Below, piece after piece: positions 966-39,952 of a stretch of DNA of 39,952 nucleotides (position 1 is the first letter of the stretch; each line of letters starts with the position of its first letter). This stretch comes from Pseudovirgaria hyperparasitica (Eukaryota). Below the pieces are notes generated by a model. That model was not told the origin of the DNA. It worked only from the letters and a program-made list of their open reading frames with translations, and did no database searches. The position numbers were made by a program, and so were the translations under genes. Where the stretch lies: NCBI GenBank assembly GCA_010093815.1, contig ML996576.1. One strand, 5' to 3'.

Positions 966-1653
966 TATAATAATAATAATAATATTATATAACTATGTAG
1001 AGTAGTACTCTATAGATATATATCTTCTCTAGTCTAAGCTACTATATAAGAAGAAATCTAAGAGGAAAAACTCTCTTTACTCTATAACTATATCTTATTA
1101 AGTCTTTATATCTTCTTAAGTATATAGCTATAGAGTATATATATAGATCTATAGTCTATATTACTATTATTTTACTCTTATATAGTATATATAGTATATA
1201 TAATATATAGAGTTATTAGTTAAGGGCTACCCTTAACTAATAGTTAGAGTTCTTCTAGAGTTCTTCTAGTATATACTAGACTTCTTCTAGTATATACTAG
1301 GGTCTATCTAGTATATATCTAGTTTCTTCTAATATATATATCTAGATCTACTAGAATTAAGAGAGAGAGAGATATATAAGTATCTACTATATAACCTTCT
1401 TAGAGTACTTATTAAGCTATTATATAATATTAGAGATTCTTATTATATAGATATATATTTATCTTTATATATAGAGATTAGAGTATATTATAAGATAGTA
1501 TTATATTATATCTCTTTAGCTATATATATTATACTATAGAGATAAATTAAAGATATCTCTCTAGTATAGATAATATAGAAGCTCTATAGCTTCTATTTAG
1601 ACTTAGAGAAGTATAGATATCTAGACTTCTATTAGCCCTTTATATATCTATTA
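966..1653 (-). mobile_element. 5'-truncated, heavily RIPped 3' end of a Tad1-like LINE
   Basis: Colinear with 12871-13525 and 33802-34460: (TAA)n tail, 3' UTR palindrome, 20-mer repeats, ORF2 C-terminus. Confidence 0.85.
1214..1242. repeat. Shared palindrome copy 1 (LINE 3' UTR)
   Basis: TATTAGTTAAGGG-CTA-CCCTTAACTAATA. Confidence 0.95.
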
Positions 1654-2700
1654 AGATTATTAATATATTAAGTTATATTAGTTATAAAGTATACTATTTT
1701 CTATCTATATATCTAGTTAGTTATATTTATATATCTAACTAGTTTACTACTATCTATAGTAATTATATATAATATATACTAATACTATAGCTATAATAAG
1801 GTATCTAAATTTAAGAGAACCTACTACTACTCTTAGTAGCCTTATATATAATACTTAGATAGATATAGATTTATATCTTTATAGATACTATATTATAGTT
1901 AATCTACTACTAAACTAATATTAGAGAGTTTCTTAGTAAGATAATATACTTTATAGTCTCTTTAGAGTAATCTTATTACTTAGCTAGTAGCTTACTAATA
2001 TTAATATCTTAGTTATTATTCTAATTAACTTATAGTATCTTACTAGTAGATAGTATACTAGTTAGTTTATAGAAAGCTATTATAGTCTTATCTTATATAC
2101 TATTTAAGTTATTATCTAGAAAAACTAGCTTTATAATCTTTTTATATATCTTATAATATAGCGGTCTATTTAGAAGTAGTTTAGTAAGATAAGGTTTATA
2201 CTATTTATAAATATAAGTAGCTATAGTAGCGCCCTTAAGTCTAAAGCTATAATATTAATAGATATTCTAGTAGTATTTAACTATTTACTTTAGTACTAAC
2301 TCCTTAGTATAGAGCTTATACTAAGTATTATAGATCTAATTTAGATACTTCTATATATACTTACTAATTTTATTATTAAATAATCTTATAGTATACTTTC
2401 TATACTTATAAATTAACTTTATAGACTTAAGGTATTAGAACTTAGTCTTAGATATAACCTAATCTATATATACCTTAGCTAATATAGTTAGAAGATAGTA
2501 TAAAGGGTAGTAAACGGTTATATACTAAATAGATTAGTATCCCTTTATATATATACTCTTAGATTTCTACTAAAAGAATTTAGTAGTAATTTATTCTATA
2601 ATAGAATATACTCTATTATTCTATCTAACTATACTACTATCTAATAACTCTATTCTTATATTTAAATTACTTCTAATATAGTACTATAGTTAAGATAGTC
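1654..2700 (-). mobile_element. Extremely decayed AT-rich relic, possibly gypsy RT/RNase H
   Basis: Saturating RIP. Only faint traces resembling DHKA...NLNS..Q...DY...YKP near 2060-2140; boundaries approximate. Confidence 0.3.
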
Positions 2701-3081
2701 TAACTAGAACTAAGAAGATTAATATAATCTACTATAAATATAAGTAATACTATATTAAATAATAGAGATCCTCTATAATTAGTATTAAATCTAGCTATTT
2801 CTAACTAAGAAGTAGAGATATTAGACTAAATTATAGAACTTTCTAATAAAGAAATAGTAGATATACTAAGTAACTTCTAATAATAAGAAGCTAGATAATA
2901 AGTTATAGCGGAGCTATATAAGATATTATAATAAACTATTACTAAACTTTAGAAATATATTATAAATTAGATCTAAGAGATCTAAACTCTTAAAGAGTAG
3001 ATAGAATATATAAAACTTCTTATAAAGAGATAAGAACTTAAAGGGTCTCTTAAAGAACTACGCTAAATAATAGTAGATAGA
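2700..3081 (+). mobile_element. Old gypsy host element, segment 1 (probable gag region), continuing at 11093
   Basis: Joined to 11093 onward by the ATAGA TSD of the inserted element; left boundary approximate. Confidence 0.5.
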
Positions 3082-3321
3082 TGTAAGGATTGTAGACGTA
3101 GGATAGCAGTCTAACAGGTCATAGGAGGATTCGGGAATATATTTAGAAGGGTAGTCTACTCTCCTAACGAGATTGATTCCTGAAGAGCAGGAATCTAGTG
3201 TGTACGGCCTACTTATATAGTGGTCTCGCTTATTCTAGCTGGCTTAACCCGGGTCCACCTATCACGGACCGTACTGGGCCATAGTGGTCTAGTTAAGTCT
3301 ATCCTAGTGTCAACCCTAATA
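3082..3321 (-). repeat. 3' LTR, gypsy family 1
   Basis: Direct repeat of 10853-11092; the differences seen are transitions; TG...CA ends partly RIPped. Confidence 0.97.
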
Positions 3322-3338
3322 ATATCCTTCTTCTTTTT
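3322..3338 (-). other. Polypurine tract, gypsy family 1
   Basis: Minus-strand AAAAAGAAGAAGGATAT abuts the 3' LTR. Confidence 0.8.
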
Positions 3339-3808
3339 GTGCTTCGCCCCGAAGCACTTAGCTATATGTAAATCCGTAATTCCATAAGCGTTATGTTTGT
3401 GCGCGCATCTAATTAAATCCATGTAACGTTATCGATAGTCTTTGCATTAGTGAACTTGAGCTCTAGTTCACTTTTATTTATACACGCGCTCATCCCTTAC
3501 TTCATGGCTGCTGCCTTGGAGGTAGCTCCGCGGGTCATGTGACCGCTATATTAACTAAGCTTATATTTAGTTCTCTTGTTCTGAATTTTCTTCTCTAGTA
3601 TATCCACCTTACTCTTAAGGTAAGTCGTTAATTCGTATACTATCTCCTTTAGTTTAGATCCGTTCGGGTCTAGAGTGGTCTATTTTCGTTAGAGCTGGTC
3701 CTATGTAATCTATTCGCGTTGTTAGGGTTACTAATTTAGCTTCTTTAATCGCCTTTAAGGCTGAACGAGTATTCCACTCTTAGATCTCTAGCTAACGTGT
3801 GTGTATAG

Positions 3809-5113
3809 ATGTCTAATACTAGTCCTATTCCTAAGCCTGCCTCCTCCTCTCGTAAGACTCGCTCTAAAGGGATTACCTCTACCCCGGCTATACCGGCTAA
3901 AAAATCCACTTATCGTAGTGGTGTGAAGGCGCGCTCTAAGTTAGAGAAGAAGGCAGCTAAGGCTACTACTACTATTACTACTAACGTGGCCACTAGTCGC
4001 TCTAATCCAGGTGATTCTAGTACTGGTGTTGCGGAAGAGGTGGCTGCAAAGCCTACCTACACCTACTCGCGCCGCCTATCTACTCTACCTCCTTTAGAGG
4101 ATGAAGAAGATCTCGTCGTAGACGATAATCGAGAGTTCACGCCTTCGCCGCCTCGCTCTAAACGCTATTCCTCTTTTCGGTCTAACATAGACCGACTTAG
4201 TCGCTCTAGGTCCTTTCAGGACCTTAACATTCGCTCTAAACCTAGCCCTAGTAATAATAAGGCCTGGGTCGCCGAAGATACTAAACGTGGTCGCGGTTTA
4301 CGCCATAGGAAAACAGCGAACTACGGTTCGATATGCTTTAAGTGTATTAAGGCTCACGCCACCGGCTCTAAATATCTCTTCCGCTCTAACTCTAGTATCA
4401 GCTACTACTCTACTAACCGCGACGGGCCTATACGCCTAATCTTTAAGCTCCCTACCCGCTGCCGCCGCTATACCGTCCTCGGTAAAGTTTGTCTTTAGGT
4501 GAGTCTATTAGGCTGTTTTGGTCTAGAGTAATCTAAAGTCGTCCATACTAATGCGTTTTTAGGTTCCTATTCGTGTATAAGATACATATAACGATCTTCG
4601 CGTCCGCGAGACTCTTAGCGGTTCTAGCGGTTACCTAGCTTCTATACACAGGGAGTTTAGGGAGCGCTGTAAGCTCTTCCTAGAGGTTATCAAAGTATGA
4701 GTTTAGAAACCGTTAATTATCATTAACCTTAGCTTATAATTTTCAGTCACCGCGAGATTCCTAGCGCTTAGGCTACCTATTCTAGGGAGTCGGTTTTAGC
4801 CACTAAGGCCGCAGAAGAGATTCGTGCTGTTCCTTCCCGCCCGCCTCGTGCTACTAACGGGTCTCGCAAGAGGTCTACTAGTTCTCCTTCTAAGTCGCCT
4901 CGTAAGAGGGTATATATTCTATTCTAGATTATTCTAGACCGCGTTAGCTAACTTTAGGTCTAGTCGCTCCGCTCTAGCGCTTAGTCGTCGTCTTACCAGG
5001 CTCTAACCGAGCGCGTGGTTACTCTGGAGGATGAGGTCTCTAACCTCCGTCGCTCTATTACTCGGTTAGTTCGTTCGCTACGCTCTAAGAGTAATAATGA
5101 GATGGAGGAGTAG
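3809..5113 (+). pseudogene. Antisense accessory gene inside gypsy family 1: basic S/R-rich N-terminus, Cys-rich Zn-cluster-like motif, C-terminal coiled coil; about 4 exons
   Basis: 229-aa ORF followed by introns 4499-4562 (GTGAGT..CTAAT..AG), 4695-4732/4746 (GTATGA, acceptor ambiguous) and 4910-4963 (GTATAT..GCTAAC..TAG). Exons contain only TAA/TAG stops revertible to CAA/CAG. Confidence 0.75.
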
Positions 5114-5364
5114 CTCTGTAGCTCTATTTGCTAGGGTTTCTATGTGGTGTGTATTGGCTCTATCTGCCTAGTTTCTATCCGTTTTGGTCCTTTTTAGACC
5201 GTTTAGATACCCGTCTACCAGTTTTCTAGTAATTTAATTCTTAACTTGATGGTATTATATGCGTTCTTGTTTGTTCTGTGACTATTGAATTTTGGATTCT
5301 AATTTCCTTTGAGTTACTTGAGTGTGGGCATCGTATATAAATTAGTTTGTCTCTCTAAATTATA

Positions 5365-5414
5365 TTAGAGCACCCGAACCAGTGGCCTAGTAGTCATCGG
5401 TTCGGGTACTCTAA
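5365..5414. other. Inverted repeat / hairpin between convergent 3' ends
   Basis: TTAGAGCACCCGAACC (5365-5380) pairs with GGTTCGGGTACTCTAA (5399-5414) with one transition mismatch. Confidence 0.75.
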
Positions 5415-5739
5415 CCTTTTGTATTGTATATCACGAGTTCAATTCCGTAGTGGGGTACCTTTTTGGTTTCTTGGTCCCATGTTCTTCTCGTGTATAATGG
5501 TCCATGTTAGTCCATTCTAGACTTCTCTATGTTATTCTATTGTAATGTGTCGCGTCGCGTGCCTACAGCGGTTGTTTACGTTTTCTTCGCGTTTGGTAAC
5601 CGTGTATCGCTTAAATTATGGGGCTGCCTTACAGAGTTTTCCTAGTGTGCGTTTAGGATTCGTGATTCGACACTTCGTTCTCTACGGCATCCTTCTTCTT
5701 TTTACGACGGCCCCGACGGCGCTAGGTTTACGGTGGTAA

Positions 5740-8700
5740 CGTGTTGTCCTATAACCTCTGTTTATATGCAGCCATCGCGGTACTTAAGATATGCACCGTA
5801 GGTTTCTAGGTGTCCTTATCCTCGGTGTAGTTCTTCCAACGGATTCGATACTTTTGGACACCGTTCTCGTCGAGCCTATGTTCGACAATATGGTCCACTT
5901 CGTACACGTCTAGTCTATCTTAGAGTATAATGGAGTGTAATTGCACGTTCGTGCGTTTATACACGTTAGGTCGAAACCTTTTAAGCAATAAGACGTGGAA
6001 TACGTTATAGACTCTCATGTCGTTTCCTAGGTCGAGCTCGTAGGCTCTTATACCGATGCGACGTTTGATTCGGAAGGGACCAGCCATTTTATAATCGAGC
6101 TTTTTATTCACTCGCGACGTTCGTATGTTACGGACGTTAAGGAGGACTTCGTCTCCCTCCTCGTACGCTTGATCTTTAACTAACCTATTATAGTACTTTA
6201 TATACGACTCATTCGCTTACTAGATCATTGCGCGATAGTTGCGTGCGGTTTTAAAGATTTTAATCGCTAGTTCCTGCGCGTGGACGTTAACATCTATCGT
6301 TCGGTTGAACTAGACCGTGTAAGGTTCGAAACCTATCCTTAGACTACGTCCTAGGTTCGCCTAGAAGGGCGTAACATCTATTATACTATAACGACTATTA
6401 TTATACGCGAATTCTGCTATGCTTAGTAGAGAGGCCTAGTCGTCTTATTCGAAATTATAGAATGCACGAAGGTAGGCCTCGAGCGTTTGGTTCTATCGCT
6501 CTATCTAACCATCTGTTTATGGATGGAATGCTATTAACATGTTTCTATTCATACCGGCCATTTCGCAGAATGACGTCCAGAATTTGGACGTGAATGTACT
6601 CCCTCGGTCCGTAACGATCCTTTTTGGTATACCATGGACCTTGATAATCTTATTCTGGAATACTTGTACCAGTTCTTTTAATGTGATCGTCTTCCACATA
6701 GGGACGTACCTAGACATTTTTATGAGTCTATCCACGACAATAAGAATTAAATCATAACTTATCCTAAGCATCTCGCTTGGAGGCAAGTTAACTATAAAAT
6801 CCATAGTAATATCTTCCTATACAAAGAGGGGGACTAGTAGAGGCTGCAAGTTCCCATATGGCTTGTGCCTAGGTGCCTTTATTCTTTGACAAATCGGATA
6901 AGTAGCTATCCATTCTTCGACGTACTTAGGTATATCTTCCTAAAAATAGTACTAACGAATCGAGCTTAGGGTGCGTACATACCCGAAATGTCCTGCTAGG
7001 TCAGCGTCATGGTATCGGCTAACTACGGTAAATCGTGCGTTGCCCGTTGGCACATAGTACTTTCTATTATAGTAGAGCAAGCCGTCCACGAAGGTCCACT
7101 TATAGTCTACTTCGGTCCGTAATAACCTATCTTACTATATTTTACGCAACTTTAAAACTGTCGGGTCTGTCTTTTATAGATCCACGATTAACTAGGCGAG
7201 GTCTACTTAACATACACGCCGGGCACCATCGCCCTCCCTAACAGCGCCGATAAATGGCTCGCTAGGGACTTCGGTACCGCGTCTTTAGTCACCGGCTTCG
7301 GTCTTATAAATTCGATTACCGGTATCGGCGTTAGCATCTCGCTAATCGTCGGATAACTTATTATCTAACCTCGTCCTTGAGAGTTGGGCCTACAGCTACT
7401 CCAGGACCCTATGGCCACTATGATCCTAGGCGCCTTCTTTATAGTTAGGTCTTCTTAATATCCCATTAGCTAGGTTTATACTTCTAGGTCGATGGTAGAT
7501 CATAAAGTAGAAATTTATAAGCTACTTAGCCTATCGAACCTATCGACGATTTAAAACCGTCGTACTCATGAACCCCTTTAAGTTATGGTAATTAGTTAGT
7601 AACTTAACGTCATGTATAGCACCTTTAAGATAATATCGCCACTACTTAAACGACTCTACTATTACTAGTAGCTCTTGGTTATGAATAGTGTATCTAGTCT
7701 CGACGTCGGCCATCTTACGCGAGAAGAACGCAACTAGATACTATTAGACCTTTTTGGACTCTATTAGTCTAGGCTAGGAGAGTATGCCCGAGATTATAAA
7801 TCCTAATACATTAGTTTCGACGCGAATAGGTTTGGTTAGGTCGAAGTACACTAGTAATAGGGCGGTTAGGAATGCTTCTTTAATCTTCTCGAAGGATATT
7901 CTTTCGACCTTAGTTAATTTAATAGATTATAATTCGATATTACGCTGTTTCTATCTACCACGGACCGTAATAGACGAGTCGGTAGTAGTAGTGCGCGCAT
8001 TAAGTGGTGCGGCTAAACGGGAGAAGTGTTTAACAAATTTTCGGTAGTAGTTGGCGAAGCCAATAAAGACACGTATGTCTCGAACGGATTTTGGTTCAGG
8101 CTAGTCCATAATAGTAGTAACTCTATCTCTCTCCATGGTTATACCTTGATTAGTAATAACGAAGCCAAGAAAGTTAACATGGTCCTAATGGAACTCGCAT
8201 TTGGATAGCTTAATATATAGCTTATGCTTTTCTAGTCTGTCTAGGACTGTACGTACGTACTGGATATGCTTCTCCTCGTTATCTAAGAAGATAAGGATGT
8301 CATCTAGGTACACGATACATGTCGTGTCGAGTAGGCCTGCTAGCGCGTTATTAATGTACGCTTGGAAGGTGCCTAGCGCGTTGGTTAGTCCAAAAGGGAC
8401 CACGGTGTACTCAAAGTGTCTATAACGGGTCCTAAAAGCCGTTTTCCATTCGTCGCCTTCCTTAATGCGAAGGCGATGGTAGGCGTCACGTAGATCGAGC
8501 TTGGTAAAGATCTTTACGCGCCCTAGTCTATCGATAGACTCGGAGATAAGAGGTAGTAGATAACGATTCTTTCGCGTGATGTTATTTAGGCCACGGTAGT
8601 CGATACATAGACGGAGGCTCCTATCCTTCTTCTTTATAAAGAGGATTAGAGCTCCGGCTAGGGATATACTAGGCCTAATCTATCCTCGCGTAAGGTTCTT

Positions 8701-9430
8701 TTTAATGTATTCTCGAAGGGCTTATAACTCGGGTTCTAAAAGAGGGTAGATGGGTCCATGTGGAGGTTGCTGGCCGTCTTCGAGATCAATAGTAAGGTCG
8801 GTAGATTGGTATTAAGGTAGTTCGGAGGAATCGATCGCTAACGCGACATGTTAGTACATTTTATACTAATATAGTAGGTTTTCGTCCACTTTAATACTAA
8901 GCTTACTATTTTACGTGAGTAAGAGTATGTAGATAGTAGAGATCGCCTTCTCGCAATCTTTCTGGAATTATTCGTCGTCGATAAGCTATACTAGTTCCCA
9001 TTAAGGTGGGTTCATACGCCAGCCAGCTATCTTCTTAAGGAAGTCTAGTTTTGGGTTATATTTCTTAAGCTACGGCATACCTAGGATTATGTCGAAGGGA
9101 CTGTCTGCCACGATAAAGGTTAAGCAGCAGAGTTTCCATTTCCCTCCGCTGTCCCAGATGCCGTATTTGATGGTGCAGGTGCCGTGTAACTTAATGGGAC
9201 CGTCGATGCCATGGAACATGGCACCTATTAGAGCTTGGATGTCGGCGTTAAGTTCTCGTGCTCGTTAGGTCGACATGACGTTAGTAGCCGACCCACTATC
9301 GAGTATTATAGTCCAATATTATCCACGAGGGACCTCGATGGGTCTAGCCTATAGTTCGATGTACTATTTAGCGGATTACCCCTCTATTATGGTCGCGCCT
9401 ACGAGTCGCGAGGGTTTCTTATAGGCTATT
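5740..9430 (-). pseudogene. pol: pol (protease, RT, RNase H, integrase, chromodomain), gypsy family 1
   Basis: ILDSGS near 9300; VPFGLTNA and VYLDD (8185-8403); MDFIVNLP and IVTDRGSTF (6517-6804); GPFRI (5920-6111); chromodomain YEVDHIVEH...YRIRWKNY near 5800-5910; end approximate. Confidence 0.95.
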
Positions 9431-10811
9431 AGTTTTTTATATTCTATGCTAGGCAGTTAGGCGCGATGTGTCCTAGCTACTAGCACTTATAGTATATAAC
9501 TGGTTAGTTAGTTATATTAGCACTCGGTGGCTTCCCCAAACGGCACTTAGGTGCTATATGGCCTATTCTACTATAGGTGTAGTAAGTGACTTTAGATTAT
9601 TTATGCGAGTCGGTCCTCGTATCTCGATGTATCGATTGGTAGGGAGATCCACGATACGATCCGCGTGGTTTTGAATTCGAGGCGTGGTAGTGGCCTCGTA
9701 ACGTCCCGCGAGATCTGTTACTAAATCGGTTTTGGTTAGACGATTTTACGTTGGATTGGATTGTTAGGGATAGTCATGCACTAGCGCGGCGTTAATTATT
9801 TATTATACGCTAGTATCGCTCCGCGAGGTTTATAAGAGCTTAGAGGTCTATAGGGATTATCGTTATAAGGTCGAGACGGTCCTTTATATTTAGGGCGAGG
9901 GACCGTTTAAAGTCGTCGTACTATCGAATCATACGATCTTCTTCGGCTTCTCTCTAGAGGGGCCGAAGGTATTTAAGAAGTTGTAACGGTAACTAATTAT
10001 CTCGTTGTCGAGTCTTGAAGATATAGCCCTAGGCCTAGTCGCGTCGTTTAGCCCTATCGCCAAAATATTAGAGGAGAAATTCGGTGAACGTGTCCTAGTT
10101 GTAGGCATCCTTAGGATGTTTAATTCGGTGTGCTATCCAACGTTCTAAAGGCGTCGGGTCGAGGTAGTTCTAGGCGAATCTAATTTTATCGCTATCGTTC
10201 GTGAATAGATGGAAGAATCGGCTACATTAGTAAGCCCATGCGTGGAAACTCTTTCTACTTTTACCATCGAAGTGAGGTGGTTTCTTAGGTCGGGGTAATT
10301 GGGATAGTAGTGGACTAGGATGGATCGTTTTAGTTGGTATAGGTCCATATGGATATAGATTAGTCGTTACTAGAACCGAAGCGCGTAATACAGCTTCAAG
10401 TCTCGCAGTGCGTCCTCGAGCTTCGTCGAGTTCGCGTAGTTATTACTCGAGTTAAACCTATCGTTACCTCTCTTCGTGTAGTCTGGTATACACGTTATCA
10501 TGAGGTGTAGTTAACGTTAGGCGATTCTAACGGATTAACTCGTTAACGTTAATAAGGTCTAGCCTCGTGTTAAGGTTAGGTCTAGTATAGTTTAAACTAG
10601 ACCGAGATAGAGTATGATAGACTCCATCCTCGTGTTCTATAATATCTTCTATAGTTACACGGAATATCGTGCGAGTTATCGGTGCGATGGCCTGTAAGGT
10701 GTAGTCATCGGTAGAAGTAGTTATAGGTAGACTATTCTCCTCGTTCAGGTTAGGAGAAGGTCTACTATAAGAGGCGGTACCACGAGTGTTATGACGAGTG
10801 GTTAGAGCCAT
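9430..10811 (-). pseudogene. gag: gag, gypsy family 1
   Basis: ATG at 10811, 41 nt inside the 5' LTR; CX2CX4HX4C knuckle at about 9452-9495; A-AAA-AAC slippery heptamer at 9438-9432 before pol. Confidence 0.85.
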
Positions 10812-10852
10812 TCCTATGAACTACCGTCGTGCTATATAAAGAGAAATCAAAA

Positions 10853-11092
10853 TATAAGGATTATAGACGTAGGATAGTAGTCTAATAGGTCATAGGAGGA
10901 TTCGGGAATATATTTAGAAGGGTAGTCTACTCTCCTAACGAGATTGATTCCTAAAGAGTAGGAATCTAGTGTGTGCGGCCTACTTATATAGTAGTCTCGC
11001 TTATTCTAGCTGGCTTAACCCGGGTCCACCTGTCACGGACCGTACTGGGCCATAGTGGTCCAGTTGAGTCTATCCTAGTGTCAACCCTAACA
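10853..11092 (-). repeat. 5' LTR, gypsy family 1
   Basis: Direct repeat of 3082-3321; minus-strand TATATAAG box. Confidence 0.97.
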
Positions 11093-12870: not shown

Positions 12871-13105
12871 ATAATAATAATAATATTATATAACTAGGTA
12901 GAGTAGTACTCTATAGGCCTATGCCTCCTCTAGTCTAAGCCACTATATAAGAAGAAACCCTATAGAGAAAAACTTCCTTATATCTATAACTATATCTCGT
13001 TAAACCTCTATTTCGTCTTAAGTATATAGCTATAGAGTACGCCTATTAGCCTATAGCCTATATTACTATTATTTTACCCTTAGGTAGCACGTATAGGTGC
13101 GGAGG

Positions 13106-13136
13106 TTATTAGTTAAGGGCTACCCTTAACTAATAA
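13106..13136. repeat. Shared palindrome copy 2 (LINE A 3' UTR)
   Basis: 14-bp perfect arms, CTA spacer. Confidence 0.95.
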
Positions 13137-13219
13137 TCGGGGTTCTCCCGGGGTTCTTCCGGTATATATCGGGTTACTACCGGCGTATACTAGGTCTCTT
13201 CTAGTATATATTTCCGGGT

Positions 13220-16200: not shown

Positions 16201-16430
16201 ATAATAAGAGTAGTATTAACCTATAAATATGGAAGAGGACTCGTCTTTCTAGTCCTAGAGGGTGTATAGTATAGTATCCGGGGTATATGGTTAGTTTACT
16301 CGTCTAGTAGTATTTATAGGGTTCCTAGATAGCGAGTATTATGGCCCCGGTCTCTTCGAGGAGCGTCGCCTAGTTCTCTCTTTTATATTATATATTTACC
16401 TATATAATTCGGAGTATATTCTAGTCCCTT
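13220..16430 (-). pseudogene. LINE ORF2 (APE endonuclease, reverse transcriptase, C-terminal Cys/His motif)
   Basis: LAI(Q)EP near 16330, LLEDFNL (LLGDFNL) near 16040, GPDGI near 15090, GI(PQ)GAP near 14535, GYTD(D) near 14450; ends approximate. Confidence 0.9.
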
Positions 16431-16464
16431 ATTAGATACTAGAGAGTATATATACCTATATACT

Positions 16465-28458: not shown

Positions 28459-28497
28459 CGGATTATTAGTTAAGGGTAGCCCTTAACTAATAATCCG
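28459..28497. repeat. Shared palindrome copy 6 (gypsy 2, inside pol)
   Basis: 18-bp perfect arms, TAG spacer. Confidence 0.95.
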
Positions 28498-31177: not shown

Positions 31178-31205
31178 TTATTAGTTAAGGGATTACCTTA
31201 ACTAA
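31178..31205. repeat. Shared palindrome copy 7, variant (gypsy 2 gag N-terminus or leader)
   Basis: TTAGTTAAGG-GATTA-CCTTAACTAA. Confidence 0.9.
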
Positions 31206-31687
31206 AGGTTGGCCCAATACGTCTACCCACAACACCTATTATCCCTTCTCTATGTTAACTAATCCCTTTATAAGGTGAACTATTACTATCGTCTTTATCG
31301 ATATAAGGTTTACGGTATCCTACTTATATTATTATCTTCGTGTAAGGCGTTCCTAAAGTGGTATACTTATGTGGCCATATTTATAAATAACAGCTATGGT
31401 AGTACTAAACAGGTTATATTTATCGTTTTTGAACTCTTCTTTACTACTTCATCTAGCCCTATTTTATATCCTATTCCCCTAAGACATTTTCGAGTCGCGC
31501 TATCACCCGTGTTAGTATATGCATGCTTTTTACGGCTACTTTTAAGAGGCTAGCCCCTAGCGACTCCGGACTCCCTATTTTCCGGACTCGTAGCTTTGAT
31601 CTAGTAAGTCTAGACTACCTTATTAGGCACGCTATATACTTCCCCTAAGCTAGTTTCGGAGTCCTAATCTCCCCCTATAAGTTCGTA

Positions 31688-31705
31688 GTCCGGGTACGAC
31701 CTCTA
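31688..31705 (-). other. Primer-binding site, probably tRNA-Gln
   Basis: TAGAGGTCGTACCCGGAC (de-RIPped TGGAGGTCGTGCCCGG) 4 nt after the 5' LTR; resembles the complement of fungal tRNA-Gln 3' ends as recalled. Confidence 0.7.
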
Positions 31706-31709
31706 AAAT

Positions 31710-32081
31710 TATAGTAAGCTATTGCCACGTGTGTCCCTTTTATAAATGGCTATGTTCCTAGTATAGTAGTCGCGACGAACTCATAAGTATCTCTTCTAGG
31801 TATTATGAGTTCTCTTTAAACGCACGACTTCTTATTAGTTCTCTTTTACGATAGGATAGGTCTATATAATACTCTTAATCAATTCTTTAATAGCTAAGCC
31901 TAATAATCAATACCTATAGAGGCCCATGAACGTAAGAAAAGGTCGAATAGTCGAATATTAGTGATGGGGGAAGCGCGCCGAGCAGAATGACTAAGGAAAA
32001 CGCCCTCCTTAAATATACAATGAAGCCATGTAATCGAGCCAGGGACACATACATGTAGGGCTGTAGGAGCGGCCTTCCACA
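31710..32081 (-). repeat. 5' LTR, gypsy family 2 copy A
   Basis: 372-bp direct repeat of 20644-21015. Confidence 0.97.
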
Positions 32082-32271
32082 CTATCTAATAGGATTTAAA
32101 AGTTCTAATATCTATAAACTATATAACCTAGAGTCTAATAAAGTTATCTATGCTAGAGACTATAAAGTATTAGAAGGATACTTTTATACACCTAATAATT
32201 ATAAGAATATTTAAGAAATATACTCTAATATAGATAACTTTAAGAACTCTAGTAGAATAGAGAAGTCTAGT

Positions 32272-32331
32272 TCTACTTCTACTTCTACTTCTACTTCTAC
32301 TTCTACTTCTACTTCTACTTCTACTTCTACT
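32272..32331 (+). repeat. (TCTACT)10 microsatellite, in-frame Ser-Thr run in the copia IN-RT linker
   Basis: Direct reading. Confidence 0.9.
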
Positions 32332-32557
32332 CTAAATAATACTTCTATAATTATAGAAGATTTAGAGAAAGAAGAATTAGAATATATAAATAATACTAGC
32401 TATAAAGATATATATAATAGTCTAGTATATTATAATATTCTAAATACGTCTATTATAGAACCAAAGTCTTATAAAGAGGTATTATTACACCCTAATAAGA
32501 ACCTCTACTTAGAAGCTATGAAAGTAGAGGTAGATACTCTTATTAAAAATAATACCT

Positions 32558-33515
32558 NNNNNNNNNNNNNNNNNNNNNNNNNNNNNNNNNNNNNNNNNNN
32601 NNNNNNNNNNNNNNNNNNNNNNNNNNNNNNNNNNNNNNNNNNNNNNNNNNNNNNNNNNNNNNNNNNNNNNNNNNNNNNNNNNNNNNNNNNNNNNNNNNNN
32701 NNNNNNNNNNNNNNNNNNNNNNNNNNNNNNNNNNNNNNNNNNNNNNNNNNNNNNNNNNNNNNNNNNNNNNNNNNNNNNNNNNNNNNNNNNNNNNNNNNNN
32801 NNNNNNNNNNNNNNNNNNNNNNNNNNNNNNNNNNNNNNNNNNNNNNNNNNNNNNNNNNNNNNNNNNNNNNNNNNNNNNNNNNNNNNNNNNNNNNNNNNNN
32901 NNNNNNNNNNNNNNNNNNNNNNNNNNNNNNNNNNNNNNNNNNNNNNNNNNNNNNNNNNNNNNNNNNNNNNNNNNNNNNNNNNNNNNNNNNNNNNNNNNNN
33001 NNNNNNNNNNNNNNNNNNNNNNNNNNNNNNNNNNNNNNNNNNNNNNNNNNNNNNNNNNNNNNNNNNNNNNNNNNNNNNNNNNNNNNNNNNNNNNNNNNNN
33101 NNNNNNNNNNNNNNNNNNNNNNNNNNNNNNNNNNNNNNNNNNNNNNNNNNNNNNNNNNNNNNNNNNNNNNNNNNNNNNNNNNNNNNNNNNNNNNNNNNNN
33201 NNNNNNNNNNNNNNNNNNNNNNNNNNNNNNNNNNNNNNNNNNNNNNNNNNNNNNNNNNNNNNNNNNNNNNNNNNNNNNNNNNNNNNNNNNNNNNNNNNNN
33301 NNNNNNNNNNNNNNNNNNNNNNNNNNNNNNNNNNNNNNNNNNNNNNNNNNNNNNNNNNNNNNNNNNNNNNNNNNNNNNNNNNNNNNNNNNNNNNNNNNNN
33401 NNNNNNNNNNNNNNNNNNNNNNNNNNNNNNNNNNNNNNNNNNNNNNNNNNNNNNNNNNNNNNNNNNNNNNNNNNNNNNNNNNNNNNNNNNNNNNNNNNNN
33501 NNNNNNNNNNNNNNN
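32558..33515. other. Assembly gap (958 N)
   Basis: N run; size is compatible with the missing copia RT core. Confidence 0.99.
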
Positions 33516-33801
33516 GGGAGGGGATATAGACTCTAGAAAATCTACTACGGGTAATATATTCTTATTATCTAATAAGAATAAAGATAATAGTATAGCTATT
33601 AGCTAGCTATCTAAATTACAAAAAATAGTAGCTATTAGTTCAGCCGAGGCCGAATATATAGCCTTAAAAGAAGCTACTAAAGAGAGTCTATTCTTAAATA
33701 ATTTTATTAAAGAACTCTTTAATAGTAACTCTAATATTAAAGAATATTATAAGATCTTTAATAAAATAAATACTATTAAAATAGACTCTTTAAGTACTAT
33801 A

Positions 33802-36800
33802 ATAATAATAATAATAATATTAGTAAACTAGGTAGAGTACCACTCTATAGGCGCATGCCTCCTCTAGTCTAAGCTACTATATAAGAAGAAACCTACGAAT
33901 AGGAAAAACTCCCTCATATCCATGACTACGCTCTATCTATCCTCTCGTTCTTTATATATATATAGCCCTAGGGGCTACCTATGGGCCTATAGCCTATATT
34001 ATAATAGTTTACCCTTAGGTAGCACGTATAGATGCGGAGATTATTAGTTAAGGGCTACCCTTAACTAATAATCGCGGTTCTCCCGGGGTTCTTCCGACGT
34101 ATACCGGGGTTCTTCCGGCATATATCGGGGTTCTTCTAGTATATATACGCGGGTCTACTAGAACTAGGGGAGAGGAAGGTATACGAGTATCTATCGGGCG
34201 ACGTCCTTAGGGTACTTATTAAGCTATCGCGTAATGTTAGAGGTCCTTATTATATAGACGAGGGCTTATCTTAGGGTATAGAGGCTAGAGCACGTCGCGA
34301 GGTAGTAGCGTATTATACCTCTCCGGCCGTAGTCCTCGCACTAGGGAGATATATCTAGGATACCTCTCTAGTAGAGGTAATATAGGAGACCTATAGCGCC
34401 TATTCGGGCTTAGAGGAGTATAGATGCTTAGGCCTTCGTTAGCCCTTTATACATCTATTTACTCGGTTCCTTCTAAGGCCCTTAGATCTATTCTAGATAC
34501 CTATTCTATTAGGAGGCCTACTAGGCTTTAAGTACCTCCCTCTATTTATTCTAGATCCATGACCGTATAACGCGGCTAAGCTCCTTAGGGCTCTATTAGC
34601 TCGGGATAGTATCCGGGTTATTTTAAACCTTCTACGCGGTCTAGCTCGAGTCCGCCTCTATATAGTATTTATATTATACTCGAGTTTAGTCTATAGTAGG
34701 GAGGGCCTAGTAATGTGCGTGGATACGTGTATATAGTACGGCGAAGGTATATACCCTATCTCCTCCACGTTCTTATGCTTATTATTTAGTAAAGTATATA
34801 AGTCTCTATATCTAGTAGAAGTCCTATATACTCGTTACGTTTATCTCGCGTCGGAGGAGCATTATATTAGTAGCTTTATATACGCCGGAGATAAGGCGGA
34901 GTATACGGTTTTATATAGACTTAAGCTTTACTCGCCGAGCTTATATAAGGGCCGTATACTAGTACTCGTATCTATATATAAAGGCTAGGCGTACTAGGGA
35001 GACGTATAGCTATCTCGCCTTATTCTAGGCTATTCTCTACGTGGATGCCGTAATCCGGCGTATAGCGGTTTCTACCTAGAGGGCTCTAGAGACGGCGTGT
35101 GCCACCTATGGTCCCTATTTTAGCTTATTATTAATCATGACGCCGAGTACTCGTATGCTCTATACTAGTAGTTCTATAAAGGCGTCGATTTAGGGGCGAC
35201 GTGCCCCCTCCCTAGTAGCTTATCCTCTATAGCGGTTAATAAAGTATATAAGCTAGTATTTTTTAGGTGCGAATTTTACTCCGTGGCGCTTTACCTACTA
35301 GACATATTTCTCGTGGTCTCATTCGAGTTATGTACATGTTCTACTAGTACTACTATCGACCGTAAGGAGGTATATATCGTCCGCGTATCCGACTACCTCT
35401 ATATATTCTATTCCCTAAAGGAGGTCTACTATAAAGAAGAGAAAGAGGATCGGGGAGATGGTACTCCCTTACGGGATGCCGTATACCGTCTCCTTATATT
35501 TGCTTCGGTATCTAGGGATATATATTTAAGTAGTCCTTTACGCGAGGAAGGACTATATAAATTATATAATCTACTTAGGTATTCGCCTTATCCGGAGGTT
35601 ATAGATAAGTCTTATATAGTTTACCTTATTAAACGCCCCTACTATATCTAGGGAGAGTAGCGTGACGACTCGTCCTTATTTCTATATAGTCTAGATAACC
35701 TTAAGGATATATTAAATAGCTATAATTAGGGAGCTTCCTACCTTCGCCTTCTAGTTTACTAGGAGAAGGCCGTATACCTATACTACTATACTTATCTTCT
35801 TAGTAATTATAGCTTCTAGTATCTTACTAAGGTAGGAGAGAAGGGCGATCGGCCTCCATCCCTTCGGCGTGTTTAGGCTCTTCCCTAGTTTTAGGAGTAT
35901 AACCGTGTATATAGTTTAGAAGCTCTATAGGTGGTATTCTATACGGGCGCACGCTCGGAATATATAGCCTATAATTAGTAAGGTCGCCTATATGGTCCTC
36001 TTAAGGCATCGATTCGGAATTCCGTCTAGCCCGGGCGCTTTATCGTTTAGGAGTATCTTAATAGCGCCGAGTATATCGTCGTCCGTGATTTCTCTAGGGA
36101 TACTTATAGCTTCCGGGTATTCCGTGCCGTTAATATCTAATAGGTCTACGGGTTCTAGGAGAGGGAATATAACCTCTTATAGGATCTCTATTTTCTTAAG
36201 GCTCGTGGAGTACGTCTTTTCTTAATATATAAGGGGGGGTATAAGTGGTATAGGTGTCGGGGAGGCGGTGCTTTTAGCCCATTTTACTATATACCATAGT
36301 CTAGTAGTATTACGTGTATATCTATCCGTAACTATACGCTACTATTTATATTACTTATTACGGAGGACCTTATCTCATTATCTTCTCGCCTCTCTCTATT
36401 TATCCTACGCTTTAGGTATGCGGTTATAGTATATATATATATATAATCTCTAGACTTCTCGCCTATGCTCTTGCACTTAAGGTATACTTTTTAGGTCTAG
36501 GGGTCTATATATTCGGTACGGCACGTATTTATCTCTTGCTCCCTAGTACGCCTATAGGAGTATATTTATGGCCTAGTTAATGGCCGGGCCATTAGATACG
36601 TCAACTATAGACGGGTCTAGGATCGTCGATTCTAGGTCCTTTAGGTACTTTTCCTAGTTAGTGTCCTTCTATAGCTATCGCCCTTATTAGTCTTAAGGGG
36701 TAGATACGTCTATTACGGTCTCTATATATTTATAGTCGGAGTCTATCTATATAAGGCTTAGGCGGTAGTATTAAGTCCTATTATAAATATATCTAGTGGC

Positions 36801-38024
36801 TAGGGTGAGGTCGAGTGTGGATCCGCCCTTATCTTATTTATGTTTTCGCTAGATAATCTATTCTACTAGTATAAGAAGGTATAGGAAGCCGTGGTATTAG
36901 GTACGTAGTTCTCTAGCTCGAAGCTCTTCGCGGGTGACGGTTAGTCTACTCTACTAGCTATAATAGAGGTTAAAGTCTCCTAGGAGGATATATTATTCTA
37001 GCTCGGTGGTACCCTTAAGCATATTATCCGCCTAAAGCGATTAGTTCTAATTATATATATTATATATATAGAGGGGTCCGATATTCGTCTAGAGGTGTAG
37101 TATTATCCGGAGGTTATCCCGTTTAGTATACGACTATAATAAGAGTAGGATAGACTTATAGATATAGAAGAGGACTCTCCTCTCCGGTCCTAGGGGGTGT
37201 ATTATATAATATCCTAGGTGTGTTATTGGTTTGTTCGTCTAGTAGTATTTATATAGCTCCTATATGGCGAGTATTACAGCTCCGGTCTCCTTAAGGAGTA
37301 TCGCCTAGTTCTTACGTTTATACTATACGTTTACCTATATAATTAGAAGTATATCTTAGTCTCTTATTAGGTGCTAGGGAATATATAGGCCTATATATTT
37401 ATTCCTCTAAGACGCGACTATCCTCGTACGGCGGCGGCCTTAGTAATTTCTCGGGGCTATTCTATTATTAGCTTTCTTAGGACGGTTTACTATTTCTAAC
37501 CGCTTCCTTATAAGGAGGTAGTCTATAGTAGTAGTATTATAGTAAAGAGAGGAATAGTAGTAGGTTATATCGTTTATAGCTACCTTACTCCCTTCATCTG
37601 GATTAAGTAGATATATTCGGTAATCTATTTGCGTTTCGCGCACGTAGCCGACCACGACGGGTACTTACCGTCGTAGTTAGAGTACTTCGCCATGTCTCTA
37701 TCCCTCTAGCCCTCTCCTCGTATTCTATAGGGGTACTCCTAGGTACTATATTCTTATCGACACCATCTATATCTAGTCTTTTAGGAGTACCGCTATACTA
37801 TATACCCGTATCCCTAATAGTTAAAGCACTATATTATCGCCTATGCTCTATCCCATGGTTCCGCTATAAGAAGCTCCCCTTCCGCTAGGAATCCCTCTTA
37901 CGTAATTTAATACGCGAGGGCGGGGTCCTTAAGCTCTACTATTATAGTAGAGTGTGCCTTTAATCTAGTTTTAATCCCTTATATGTTCTTCTACCATGCT
38001 CTTACGATCTTAATCCCTAGGTAT
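33802..38024 (-). mobile_element. LINE copy B, 3' part (ORF1 end, ORF2, 3' UTR, tail)
   Basis: Colinear with 12871-17074; RT GYADD near 35380; broken at the gypsy-2 LTR. Confidence 0.93.
34039..34073. repeat. Shared palindrome copy 8 (LINE B 3' UTR)
   Basis: 16-bp perfect arms, CTA spacer. Confidence 0.95.
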
Positions 38025-39952
38025 TATGGAAGGCCGCTCCTATAGCCCCACATGTATGTGTCCCTAGCTCGATTACATGGCTTTATTATATATTTAAGGA
38101 GTGCGTTTTCCTTGGTCATTCTACTCGGCGCGCTTCCCCCATCACTAATATTCGACTATTCGATCTTTCCTTACGTTCATAGGCCTCTATAGGTATTAAT
38201 TATTAGGCTTAGCTATTAAAGAATTGATTGAGAGTATTATATAGACCCGTCCTATCGTAAAAGAGAACTAATAAGAAGTCGTGCGTTCAAAGAGAACTTA
38301 TAATACCTAGGAGAGATACTTATGAGTTCGTCGCGACTACTATACTAGAAACATAGCTATTTATAAAAGGGACACACGTGGCAATAGCTTACTATAATTT
38401 TAGAGGTTATACCCGGACTACGAACTTATAGGGGGAGATTAGGACTCCGAAACTAGCTTAGGGGAAGTATATAGCGTGCCTAATAAGGTAGTCTAGACTT
38501 ACTAGATCGAAGCCACGAGTCCGGAAAACAGGGAGTCCGGAGTTACTAGGGGCTAGCCTCTTAAAAGTAGCTATAAAAAGCATGCGTATACTAATACGGG
38601 TAATAGCGCGACTCGAAAATGTCTTAGGGGAATAGGATATAAAATAGGGCTAGATGAAGTAGCAAAGAAGAGTTTAAAAACGATAAATATAACCTATTTA
38701 GTACTACTATAGCTGTTATTTATAAACACGGCTATATAAGTATACTACTTTAGGAACGCCTCACACGAAGATAATAACATAAGTAGGATACTATGAACCT
38801 TATATCGATGAAGACGATAGTAATAGTTCACCTTATAAAGGGATTAGTTAATATAGAGAAGGGATGATAGGTGTTATAGGTAGACGCATTAGGCTAACCT
38901 TTAGTTAAGGTAATCCCTTAACTAATAACCTTACCCCTAGCGTCTCTACTAGCATATCTACTACTAGTAATAGTACGATAGAAGCTTAAAACAACGACCT
39001 AGTAACTCGTAGAGAGATACTTAACTTCTTCGTAGCATTTACGCGACAAGGAAGAATAGTATCTCTATCTACCCTAGCCCCTAAGCGCTTTAAAGGAATA
39101 AACATCACGGTCTTTCTTTAGAAGTACGAGGACATATATATAAACTATGAAGTTCCGCCTAATAAGAAGATAACCTCCCTACTATTATACTACGAGGACT
39201 ATCTCCGTCCTACCATTAAAGAAATAAGTAGGTTTTAGAAATAGTAGTAGGCTACGCTACGTGAAGAATTATTAAAGGAATTCTCTCTATTTAACTCTAC
39301 CCTCGAGGAAGGCACCATCTACTTTATCCGAAAATACGTGGAAATGGTTAAAGTAGAGCCATTCTACTCTCTCTCTATATACTACTCCTAGTATTATATT
39401 ATCATAGAGAAACTTACGGCTAAAGGAAGCCTAAGCTTATATTCGCGAATAGAGCTCTTTCTAGAAGGGCTACCTAATAGTCTTAAGGCTCGGGCTATAG
39501 AGAAATGTTAACTCACGATGGAAGTACATAGTTATAACTAGGTAATTATCTATAGCTTCGTATTACGAAAGGCTAGAGCACTTAAGGAACTAGCTTATAT
39601 TAATAAGTACTTAGCCGCATAAGAGCTAGCCATAGCTATATACTATAAATCAAAGATAGGGAGTAGGAAGACCGGCTTAGAAGAGTAGTTACATGAAGAA
39701 AGAAGAACTAATGAATTTAACCACCCCTCTCTAGTCGTAGTACACGTCGCGCTAGAATCGGATAAGTTTAACGAGATAGTAGAGAGATTTAGTAAACTAG
39801 ACCTTACGTTAATTAAGATAAAGTCCTACTTTATCTCTAATCCCTTATTCCCATCCCTTAAGAAGTACGAACCTAAGCTACTTTCGGCTATTATTAACTA
39901 GTAGGCGCGAAGGCTAAATCTTTTAGTATATCCCTAAGTACGAGGCATACCT
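38025..39952 (+). mobile_element. Gypsy family 2 copy B: 5' LTR (38025-38396), PBS, gag start; runs off the window
   Basis: Inverted near-identical copy of about 30155-32081. Confidence 0.96.
38901..38928. repeat. Shared palindrome copy 9, variant (gypsy 2 copy B)
   Basis: TTAGTTAAGG-TAATC-CCTTAACTAA. Confidence 0.9.

Follow-up and report, generated by a model that had tools for sequence, protein, structure and literature searches.

A 31-bp palindrome, TTATTAGTTAAGGGC-[A/T]-GCCCTTAACTAATAA, is present in seven near-exact and two variant copies in the window (the whole stretch of DNA analysed here, 39,952 nucleotides), and its copies are distributed over five contexts: the 3' UTR (three copies) and the 5' UTR (two copies) of a LINE, and three sites within an LTR retrotransposon, gypsy-2. 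All five sites are non-coding junctions, and the comparison of their surroundings shows that the palindrome was physically copied into them, in the LINE and gypsy-2 lineages, before these families multiplied, and was then inherited. Our preferred reading, held at somewhat less than even confidence, is that the copied sequence is a cis element of the retroelements, one that forms hairpins in their own nucleic acid, rather than a neutral passenger.

Sequence and copy number of the palindrome

The window was scanned with the 31-bp pattern, allowing up to three mismatches, and 100 dinucleotide-preserving shuffles served as the null. Canonical copies start at 13106, 17883, 19804, 21163, 28463 and 34041 (no mismatch) and at 1213 (one mismatch, the last base being G), against none expected by chance, since not one of the 100 shuffles held any match. 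The nine copies described in an earlier note on this DNA are thereby confirmed at the sites that it gave, with coordinates corrected by 0–4 bases for those placed at 1214, 34039, 19803, 21162 and 28459. The region is AT-biased and strongly RIP-affected, which could suggest that the copies are alike by chance, that RIP made them converge on AT-rich sequence, or that assembly or adapters produced an artefact. However, chance is ruled out by the shuffles, RIP cannot create the GGGC..GCCC core, and contigs from four other runs, belonging to three studies, either run across the palindrome or end at it. An origin of this kind is effectively refuted.

The palindrome consists of 15-nt arms on either side of one central A or T, the whole unit being a perfect inverted repeat. 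The earlier note had described the dyad with a three-nucleotide spacer; the spacer reduces to a single A/T, the three central nucleotides being C-W-G, which RIP has turned into TAG or CTA in five of the seven canonical copies. The 31-bp core extends to 33–41 bp at some sites, the shared sequence measures at most ~41–45 bp, and the unit has stops in each of the three reading frames. An 11-nt arm occurs 20 times at no more than one mismatch, against 2.24 occurrences expected, and 18 of these 20 matches are the paired arms of the nine palindromes, leaving two solo arms. All palindrome counts cover this one 40-kb window, in which non-transposon DNA amounts to ~0.8 kb.

Host elements and palindrome sites

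The window is a mutation-riddled fungal chromosome end. LINE copy A (12868–18149, minus strand) is a non-LTR retrotransposon of ~5.3 kb with an RVT_1 domain at ~14207–14932 (E = 1.2e-12), an (ATT)n tail at ~12868 and a 5' end that we infer to be 18149, where contigs of X3 and X4 end; it carries palindromes A2 and B1. LINE copy B (33802–38025, minus strand), about 73–75% identical to copy A, is cut at 38025 by a gypsy-2 LTR and carries A3. LINE 5' fragment C (19570–20643, plus strand) is inverted with respect to copy A (17071–17950 matches 20643–19767), carries B2 and has a loose contig end at 19569; the gypsy-2 LTR cuts it and copy B at one shared LINE position. Palindrome A2 (13106–13136; no mismatches, plus-strand centre CTA) lies in the 3' UTR of copy A, ~250 nt past the end of ORF2 and ~220–240 nt ahead of the 3' tail, and A3 (34041–34071; no mismatches) occupies the equivalent site in copy B. 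The same 3' UTR site is found with one mismatch as A1 (1213–1243) in a 5'-truncated, heavily RIP-mutated LINE fragment (967–1652). In the 5' UTR of copy A, B1 (17883–17913) ends 2 nt ahead of the ORF1 ATG (17880–17878); the frame opening at 17880 starts with M and continues into ORF1-like sequence, in which CCHC-like knuckles were read by eye. B2 (19804–19834) is the equivalent 5' UTR site in fragment C, with its centre base flipped relative to B1.

The gypsy-2 LTR retrotransposon (20637–32088, minus strand; 11.4 kb) is bounded by LTRs at 20637–21013 and 31705–32079 (92% identity), encodes RT_RNaseH (26548–26838) and Integrase_H2C2 (25981–26118) domains on the minus strand, and carries palindromes C, D and E1. 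Palindrome C (21163–21193) lies ~150 nt upstream, in the sense direction, of the 3' LTR (20637–21013/21022). Palindrome D (28463–28493), where the dyad spans at least 39 bp, sits where gag-PR gives way to the RT-RNaseH-integrase ORF: a protease-like motif was read by eye upstream of it, and it corresponds to the start region of a separate ~1200-aa pol ORF in relatives (10 found, 8 mapped), the eight mapped by tblastn (1164–1267 aa) aligning from their residues 57–184 and starting at 28209–27996. Variant E1 (31178–31208), which matches the canonical sequence at 25 of 31 bases and forms a 10-bp stem with a 5-nt loop, lies 496 nt past the 5' LTR and at most ~180 nt upstream of a conserved gag motif. 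Variant E2 (38898–38928) is the equivalent site in a second, partial and inverted gypsy-2 copy (38018–39948, plus strand; 30158–32088 matches 39948–38018 at 93% by self-BLAST), and the two variants are mutually reverse complementary because their host copies are inverted. Both had been noticed before, at 31178 and 38901, and are real. The five independent contexts originally proposed likewise hold as five sites with unrelated flanks, with the 5' and 3' sites of gypsy-2 exchanged, because both elements lie on the minus strand.

Within the window, the palindrome is present in every element copy compared for sites A (3/3), B (2/2) and E (2/2), and it is absent from the gypsy-2 LTRs (20637–21022, 31705–32079 and 38018–38396). 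As the earlier note had reported, no match is found in gypsy-1 (3081–11095, minus strand; LTRs 95% identical; RVT_1, rve and SH3_Tf2-1 domains), which provides a palindrome-free negative control family, or in the AT-rich blocks resembling copia; tolerating decay by G>A and C>T changed neither result.

Flanking sequence and evidence on insertion

Across contexts, similarity detected by self-BLAST covers just 30–43 nt and ends within ~10 nt of the core, and alignments of the flanks between contexts are not significant against shuffles, in a purine/pyrimidine alphabet or against real-sequence nulls. Two exceptions are a weak hint of similarity between the LINE 3' UTR and the middle gypsy-2 site (p ~0.05–0.1 per side) and the canonical gypsy-2 sites C and D, which have 8/10 bases in common just downstream. 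Significant flank homology, set beforehand as the outcome that would point to capture of one larger segment, was not found, and the proposal that different retroelement classes acquired the sequence is borne out by its copying into unrelated flanks of LINE and gypsy-2.

Such copying might also reflect a neutral passenger, a micro-foldback or MITE-like DNA made of two inverted ends only, which would have inserted several times into non-coding parts of LINE and gypsy-2 master copies and then been carried along. We regard this origin, the main rival of the cis-element reading, as possible but rather unlikely. It accords with the perfect inverted repeat formed by the whole unit, with identical copies in unrelated flanks and with ragged extra common bases at some sites (those of C and D, and TCCGCAC at A), and the non-coding positions would follow from survivorship, because stops in all frames would make coding insertions lethal to the element. 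A search for target-site duplications (offsets −6 to +7, lengths 2–9) found no direct repeat outside the dyad in any context, but 7/7 copies hold, within the dyad, a self-complementary dinucleotide (TA or AT) that could hide a duplication. Against a neutral passenger, private insertions are absent from the rest of the ~39 kb of transposon DNA, gypsy-1 and copia included, and no empty variant reaches a share of 5% at six sites in four runs among those counted. The latter test is weak, since the palindrome interrupts contigs: in independent runs they end or begin precisely at it (X3 at 17913 and 17884, X4 at 17912). A contig of run X5, from a differently labelled organism, nevertheless spans site A. 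Furthermore, this origin requires five separate insertions in two families, all of them fixed, and one copy lies just 2 nt from a start codon.

MITEs and foldback elements are non-autonomous class II transposons with terminal inverted repeats that occur in many copies and insert into other transposons. The palindrome resembles them in its terminal inverted repeats (as a 31-bp unit), its multiple copies and its location within other transposons, but it has no internal region, shows no unambiguous target-site duplication and, at 31–41 bp, is to our knowledge smaller than described eukaryotic MITEs; nor were empty sites or private insertions seen. A MITE remnant with empty sites, a second outcome set beforehand against the cis-element reading, finds no backing in the window, within the limits of that weak test, and a minimal mobile insertion, the alternative originally offered, remains a live rival. 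Bacterial REP elements and integron attC sites are likewise short palindromes, perfect or imperfect, at gene boundaries that act as single-strand hairpins and are moved by HUH or tyrosine recombinases. They provide a functional analogy only, being prokaryotic, and neither recombinase is in evidence here.

RIP and conservation of the arms

Repeats in the window bear a clear RIP signature, with TA/AT of 1.44–1.72 and (CA+TG)/(AC+GT) of 0.00–0.54 (0.25–0.27 in LINE and gypsy-2), compared with 0.91 and 1.10 in unique DNA. Less-mutated contigs, set against the window, give A>G at 474 places and T>C at 201, versus C>T at 19 and G>A at 20. The palindrome arms contain neither CpA nor CpG, the preferred RIP targets. 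In dead copies, no identical run between A2 and A3 is longer than the 34-nt stretch that contains the palindrome (4.2 kb compared, 72.9% identity), upholding the original observation that the arms stay identical in diverged LINE copies; the palindrome again gives the longest such run (31 nt) when A2 is compared with A1, and its arms rank first and fourth among the identical runs of B1 and B2. Only 4 of 416 31-nt segments free of CA, TG and CG are identical, and all four are the palindrome itself. In A1, the GGG/CCC cores (CCCTT) are unchanged although 79% of CCT sites are mutated. Under trinucleotide rates, the probability that all eight arm cytosines remain unchanged is at most 0.01 in A1 and 0.16–0.25 in each other comparison; these statistics treat each site as mutating independently of the others and depend on RIP-mutated DNA aligned with MAFFT. 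Judged from these alignments, the lack of CpA and CpG accounts for part, not all, of the arm identity. A neutral passenger could retain its arms through the absence of preferred RIP sites, and short perfect palindromes may escape RIP. RIP-degraded copies were not found in the ~39 kb of transposon DNA of the window, and the C-rich pre-RIP form suggested in the earlier note has no support there, matches in a metagenome scan falling only in bacterial-type genes.

That dead-copy arms are spared RIP-type change beyond what context predicts is also what a protein bound during RIP would produce, and the palindrome may be a DNA-level site for a dimeric sequence-specific protein, of host or transposon origin, acquired by different retroelements. 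The perfect dyad, with a centre that varies freely as if not contacted, fits such a site, as do the solo half-sites, which are not enriched (2 vs ~2.2 expected), so that the site works, if at all, as a pair. On balance we find this improbable: at 15 nt the arms exceed what is usual for the half-site of a transcription factor, no copy lies in an LTR or other likely promoter, and no DNA-binding, accessory or dioxygenase domain is detectable in gypsy-2. The 3.8 kb between integrase and site C (21192–25045, minus strand) gave no Pfam match at E up to 1, and the plus strand at 21023–25824 gave none either; this region is RIP-degraded, and a protein may be missed there. In Arabidopsis, VANDAL DNA transposons encode the anti-silencing protein VANC, which binds short non-coding motifs. 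The palindrome resembles VANC targets as a short non-coding transposon motif and a possible address for a sequence-specific protein, but its carriers are retroelements and an accessory protein is undetected in gypsy-2; the VANC-like scheme of the earlier note is consequently left with no protein partner in evidence.

Hairpin potential and the centre flip

Free energies predicted for the hairpins range from −17.6 to −26.5 kcal/mol, with z-scores between −3.5 and −6.4; the stem is constant and the loop variable (CAG, CTG, TAG or CTA, enlarged in E). No compensatory base changes occur among the copies, and the hairpin is not proven by covariation because its stems never vary. The flanks of B1 and B2 are reverse complementary, yet both copies read CAG on the plus strand. 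Such an A/T flip is a transversion, a class that accounts for only 19 of the 1126 places found to vary in run X1 among the contigs counted, and it fits inversion of the loop in a hairpin. This flip, and the weak extra similarity on both sides of the LINE 3' UTR site and gypsy-2 site D, would also fit a palindrome without a role that arises because DNA or cDNA readily forms hairpins, and that spreads and becomes homogenised through template switching or recombination between copies, or else acts as a preferred target or breakpoint. We consider a by-product of this kind very unlikely, given that joints or rearrangement breakpoints at palindromes are absent among those listed, that nested insertions in the window lie elsewhere (gypsy-2 entered the LINE ~810 nt away) and that homogenisation limited to 31 bp over thousands of copies is hard to picture.

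Discussion

In the cis-element reading that we tentatively prefer, each copy would fold as a 14–19 bp hairpin in transcript or cDNA and, because the sequence is self-complementary, any two copies are able to pair. Pairing could bridge the 5' and 3' UTRs of the LINE, could involve the leader, the gag-PR/pol junction and the 3' end of gypsy-2, or could mediate RNA dimerisation. The palindrome would have spread between contexts through micro-insertion or when reverse transcription switched templates, and would be retained by selection on master copies; dead copies would keep their arms through the lack of CpA and CpG and because palindromic DNA is apparently a poor RIP substrate, as a cruciform or with a bound factor. 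Several points count against a cis element. The gypsy-1 and copia elements of the same window do without the palindrome, the LINE 3' UTR copy adjoins neither the ORF end nor the 3' tail, and a strong signal for translation or packaging would be expected to be larger than a 14-bp AU-rich hairpin. An RNA-level function leaves arm retention in dead, stop-riddled copies unexplained, and RIP protection is an added assumption.

Known retroelement palindromes provide partial parallels. PAL1 and PAL2 in yeast Ty1 RNA, like retroviral dimer-initiation sites, are self-complementary, can pair with a second RNA copy and are needed for RNA dimers to form and for mobility (PMC6844567). The LINE B and gypsy-2 E sites share with them a location in a transcribed non-coding 5' region, but the palindrome is 31 nt and not short, occurs in two to three copies per element that include 3' positions, and takes one identical sequence common to a LINE and an LTR element. 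LTRs of maize Sireviruses are rich in palindromes that can form hairpins, are conserved in old copies, make up a hot spot for matches to small RNAs and have a proposed role in silencing and element fate (PMC4728375). The present palindrome is similarly hairpin-capable, located within retrotransposons and kept in old copies; those of Sireviruses belong to the cis-regulatory part of the LTR and are family-specific, whereas it lies outside LTRs at ORF junctions and is identical across unrelated families. Lastly, LINE 3' UTR stem-loops are recognised by the element's own reverse transcriptase (PMC5135761), and sites A represent a conserved potential stem-loop in a LINE 3' UTR. Unlike the 3' stem-loop of stringent LINEs, which immediately precedes the 3' terminal repeat, the palindrome stands well upstream of the 3' tail, at the distance given above for A2, and has further copies in the 5' UTR of the LINE and in an LTR retrotransposon.

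The two levels may also be combined, although we hold this to be quite improbable, in a palindrome that serves as a cross-family address in both forms, through RNA pairing within and between LINE and gypsy-2 transcripts and as DNA shielded from RIP by a cruciform or a bound dimer. If this were true, pairing of LINE and gypsy-2 transcripts would allow co-packaging or hitch-hiking between non-LTR and LTR retroelements, and the palindrome would be without precedent as a defined sequence with local resistance to RIP.

The palindrome copies and their flanks

A pattern for the 31-bp palindrome allowing at most three mismatches is matched seven times in the window (1213, 13106, 17883, 19804, 21163, 28463 and 34041) and in none of 100 shuffled sequences. 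A variant at 31178 and 38898 represents a single site in two inverted copies of the gypsy-2 element. In all, the nine occurrences fall at five sites: A and B in the 3' and 5' UTR of a LINE, and C, D and E in the 3' part, middle and 5' part of gypsy-2, respectively. Site A is kept in all three LINE 3' ends of the window, and site B in both LINE 5' ends. The dyad symmetry described in the earlier note holds, but the fixed 3-nt spacer assigned to it does not: the arms are 15 nt long around one central A or T, and the apparent spacer is a C-W-G in which the CpA/TpG has been altered to TAG or CTA in five of the seven copies.

The sequence common to different sites spans only 30–43 nt by BLAST. As the earlier note had claimed, the flanks are essentially unrelated: measured against shuffles, in a RIP-tolerant purine/pyrimidine alphabet and against 1500 real 80-nt windows, the between-site comparisons were not significant apart from two small exceptions. 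Sites C and D agree at 8 of 10 bases immediately after the palindrome in the sense direction, and sites A and D are weakly alike on both sides (p about 0.05–0.1 per side) because of CCGG-containing tandem units beside both, GAACCCCGG-like at the LINE 3' UTR site and GCCGGA-like at site D. These short units adjoin the palindrome at 13137–13200, 34072–34140 and 1244–1310 (site A) and at 28494–28530 (site D), and a TCCGCAC begins 2 nt after site A. Since the flank nulls are mostly non-significant, the flanks are judged to be essentially unrelated and the common unit to be 31 bp, with ragged edges reaching ~41–45 bp; the same comparisons led us to reject a larger common segment around the palindrome. 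Identity over 31 bp between unrelated flanks requires physical copying. Convergence and RIP were both rejected as origins, given that neither can make the GGGC..GCCC core. Neither RIP-degraded nor private copies of the palindrome were found elsewhere in the window, and no direct repeat flanks it, the only candidates being TA or AT dinucleotides hidden within the dyad.

The retroelement nest

Telomere repeats, (CCCTAA)n with a few CCTAAA variants, open the window up to about base 120 (1–122), which places the entire transposon nest in a subtelomeric position. Next comes a unique, GC-normal stretch of 0.8 kb (~120–880), and an open frame at 1–627 matched no convincing Pfam family. By self-comparison and domain scans, nearly all of the remainder consists of nested, mutated retroelements. 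A gypsy-1 element lies on the minus strand at 3081–11095, with RVT_1, rve and SH3_Tf2-1 domains. LINE copies A (~12868–18149, with a minus-strand RVT_1 domain at ~14207–14932, E 1.2e-12) and B (33802–38025) are likewise on the minus strand, and the LINE is also represented by a heavily mutated, 5'-truncated 3' fragment (967–1652) and an inverted 5' fragment, C (~19570–20643). Near the end of LINE ORF2, contigs from three other sequencing runs (X1, X3 and X4) skip 276 bp (13402–13677) and carry CACA instead, an indel that separates the window copy from less-mutated copies.

Gypsy-2 (20637–32088, minus strand; LTRs at 20637–21013 and 31705–32079) carries RT_RNaseH and Integrase_H2C2 domains and is ~35% identical to Pol proteins of roughly 1200 aa. 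At 11.4 kb it is unusually long, with ~3.8 kb between the integrase and the palindrome that precedes the 3' LTR (21192–25045); no Pfam family is detectable there on either strand, and the segment may contain an accessory gene that has degraded, or else a nested fragment. A second gypsy-2, partial and inverted, occupies 38018–39948. A gypsy-2 LTR interrupts both LINE copy B and fragment C, each time at an identical position in the LINE (17071–17075, 20637–20643 and 38018–38025), and a LINE-plus-gypsy-2 composite must therefore have been duplicated within the window in opposite orientations. Two LINE 5' ends (~18149 and ~19570) are arranged head to head with 1.4 kb of AT-rich copia-like DNA between them, and the pair makes up one large imperfect inverted repeat (17071–20643).

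The copia-like, AT-rich pieces lie at 18717–19569 and 32215–33606, with an ORF for a pol C-terminus on the minus strand at 19348–19593. The second piece is a long open frame that enters an assembly gap of 958 N (32558–33515), located between gypsy-2 and LINE copy B. Contigs of runs X3, X4 and X5 that match 18726–19569 are nearly identical to it (2–6 differences), at depths of up to 5504 versus 40–93 for the LINE. Rather than RIP debris, these pieces look like a copia family that is young, high in copy number and natively AT-rich.

Positions of the palindrome within the elements

In the sense of the LINE, 2 nt separate the end of site B from an ATG (context CCATGG) that opens a frame into ORF1-like sequence with CCHC-like knuckles; an in-frame TAA within the palindrome precedes this ATG. 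A read-through search returned no ORF1 homologue at E up to 1e-5, so that the ORF1 start is placed from the reading frame and from knuckle motifs read by eye. Site A falls ~250 nt past the end of ORF2 and ~220–240 nt before the (ATT)n tail common to all three LINE 3' ends. In gypsy-2, 496 nt separate the 5' LTR from site E, which is at most ~180 nt upstream of a conserved gag motif (read by eye), and site C is ~150 nt upstream of the 3' LTR. Site D separates an upstream protease-like motif from the downstream RT–RNase H–integrase block. Ten gypsy-2 relatives (891–1267 aa) have RT, RNase H and integrase domains without a protease domain, and the tblastn alignments of the eight tested begin at their residues 57–184 and at window positions 28209–27996; a separate pol ORF thus begins close to site D.

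The palindrome has stop codons in all three frames of both strands and therefore could not sit inside a working ORF. Its confinement to non-coding junctions could reflect a neutral micro-foldback insertion, able to survive only in the non-coding parts of master copies. We consider this explanation possible but on the unlikely side; the lack of private insertions and of an unambiguous target-site duplication argues instead for a cis element, as do the junction positions themselves (at one site a start codon is 2 nt away), the presence of the palindrome in every family copy in the window, and a stem that is invariant while the loop varies.

RIP and the conservation of the arms

In base composition the repeats are strongly RIP-like, with a TA/AT ratio of 1.44–1.72 versus 0.91 in unique DNA and a (CA+TG)/(AC+GT) ratio of 0.00–0.54 versus 1.10. 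Another sample of the same organism yielded contigs with a less-mutated LINE, which departs from the window copy by A>G at 474 and T>C at 201 places, but by C>T at only 19 and G>A at only 20. In the most mutated site-A copy (A1, in the 3' fragment), 80–100% of CpA, 83–88% of CpG, about 50% of CpC and 14–23% of CpT sites have changed. The palindrome arms contain neither CpA nor CpG, which explains part of their stability.

Several comparisons indicate that the arms are conserved beyond this. Between LINE copies A and B (4225 columns, 72.9% identity), the palindrome is the longest identical run at 34 nt, followed by runs of 32, 28 and 24 nt. The site-A copies A2 (LINE copy A) and A1 likewise have the palindrome as their longest common run (31 nt), and in the 5' UTR comparison its arms rank first and fourth, with a break only at the centre. 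Among 416 windows of 31 nt without CA, TG or CG (502 in the reverse direction), the four identical ones are all palindrome, and in A2 against A1 the palindrome is the one identical window among 112. Trinucleotides are extensively mutated in A1 (CCT at 23 of 29 and 31 of 39 places; CCC at 8 of 15 and 10 of 23), and the chance of all eight arm cytosines remaining unchanged, from trinucleotide rates in the same alignments, is at most 0.01 in A1 and 0.16–0.25 in each of four other directed comparisons. These values are rough, assuming independent sites and correct alignments, and agree with the empirical window counts. Missing RIP sites as the sole cause of arm identity were rejected on both the window counts and the trinucleotide rates.

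The LINE copies compared are dead and riddled with stop codons; the excess conservation of the arms therefore points to a cause at the level of the DNA, either less RIP where the palindrome can extrude or the binding of a factor. A double-stranded site for a dimeric protein, the idea put forward in the earlier note, would explain protection from RIP, but no accessory protein was detected in gypsy-2 by Pfam, and we regard such a site as improbable.

Predicted hairpins and contigs of other runs

The predicted RNA hairpins range from -17.6 to -26.5 kcal/mol, and a fold as stable arises in no more than 1 of 200 shuffles. Variant E has a 10-bp stem and a 5-nt loop, with its downstream 14-nt arm intact. 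The flanks of the two site-B copies (17883 and 19804) are reverse-complementary, yet both read CAG on the plus strand, and the centre base must therefore have flipped, a transversion; transversions account for only 19 of the 1126 places that vary in run X1. A flip of this kind, here a single event, is what inversion of a hairpin loop would produce. Rfam at the gathering threshold gave no match and ARAGORN no tRNA, so nothing indicates descent of the hairpin from any structured RNA already known.

Contigs of other runs end or start exactly at the 5' UTR palindrome (17913 and 17884 in X3, 17912 in X4 and in X1), where a 31-mer occurring in several contexts would break the assembly graph as seen. 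A contig from X5, a differently labelled organism, runs across site A and differs from the window at 8 places over 202 nt. No contig variant skipping the palindrome occurs among the matches listed for the six sites compared, with X1 counted in part, which is weak evidence against empty sites.

Discussion

The shared palindrome is real and unusual, and any function is putative. Our preferred reading, held tentatively, is a hairpin-forming cis element that would have been acquired several times by retroelements and retained in their master lineages, and whose self-complementarity could allow its copies to pair within one RNA or between two. Retroelement palindromes are known as dimerisation sites in Ty1 and in retroviruses. 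In its pairing the present palindrome would resemble PAL1/PAL2 of Ty1, self-complementary sequences with a demonstrated pairing role (PMC6844567). Also known are hairpin-forming, siRNA-attracting palindromic LTR regions in maize Sireviruses (PMC4728375) and LINE 3' stem-loops that serve as reverse-transcriptase recognition sites (PMC5135761). In none of these systems do a LINE and an LTR element have one identical sequence in common at several junctions.

Searches of the open-access literature for the 11-nt arms or C-rich forms returned only unrelated papers among the matches listed, and this literature yielded analogies but no description of a comparable case of sharing between retroelement classes, or of a sequence locally resisting RIP. 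The C-rich pre-RIP form proposed in the earlier note found no support in the window, and a metagenome scan yielded bacterial-type genes only. In that scan, a RIP-tolerant 25-nt pattern matched five loci (L001–L005), with the palindrome in frame: L003, L004 and L005 have one common flank, with a RecG wedge domain in L003, L002 has EF-G/EF-Tu domains (an EF-G/LepA-like GTPase), and L001 lies beside a DDAH-like ORF. A perfect 25-nt palindrome whose C-rich arms follow the same pattern (L002:4–28; L003:382–406, with the flank of L004 and L005) is translated as SQGLPLT in two different genes, always near a contig end, and looks like an in-frame palindromic insertion element of an uncultured bacterium. 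The five loci were judged unrelated to the fungal palindrome. The viral contigs scanned contained no locus.

To our knowledge, the retroelement families of one genome normally have only protein domains in common. An identical 31-bp dyad copied into five non-coding junctions of a LINE and a gypsy element would point either to a tiny mobile DNA of a type not known from fungal nuclei, or to a cis element useful enough for repeated acquisition across retroelement classes. That the arms survive in copies in which most of these trinucleotides have mutated raises the question of whether RIP can be blocked locally by a short palindrome or by a factor that binds it, and either answer would bear on the persistence of transposons in RIP-competent fungi.
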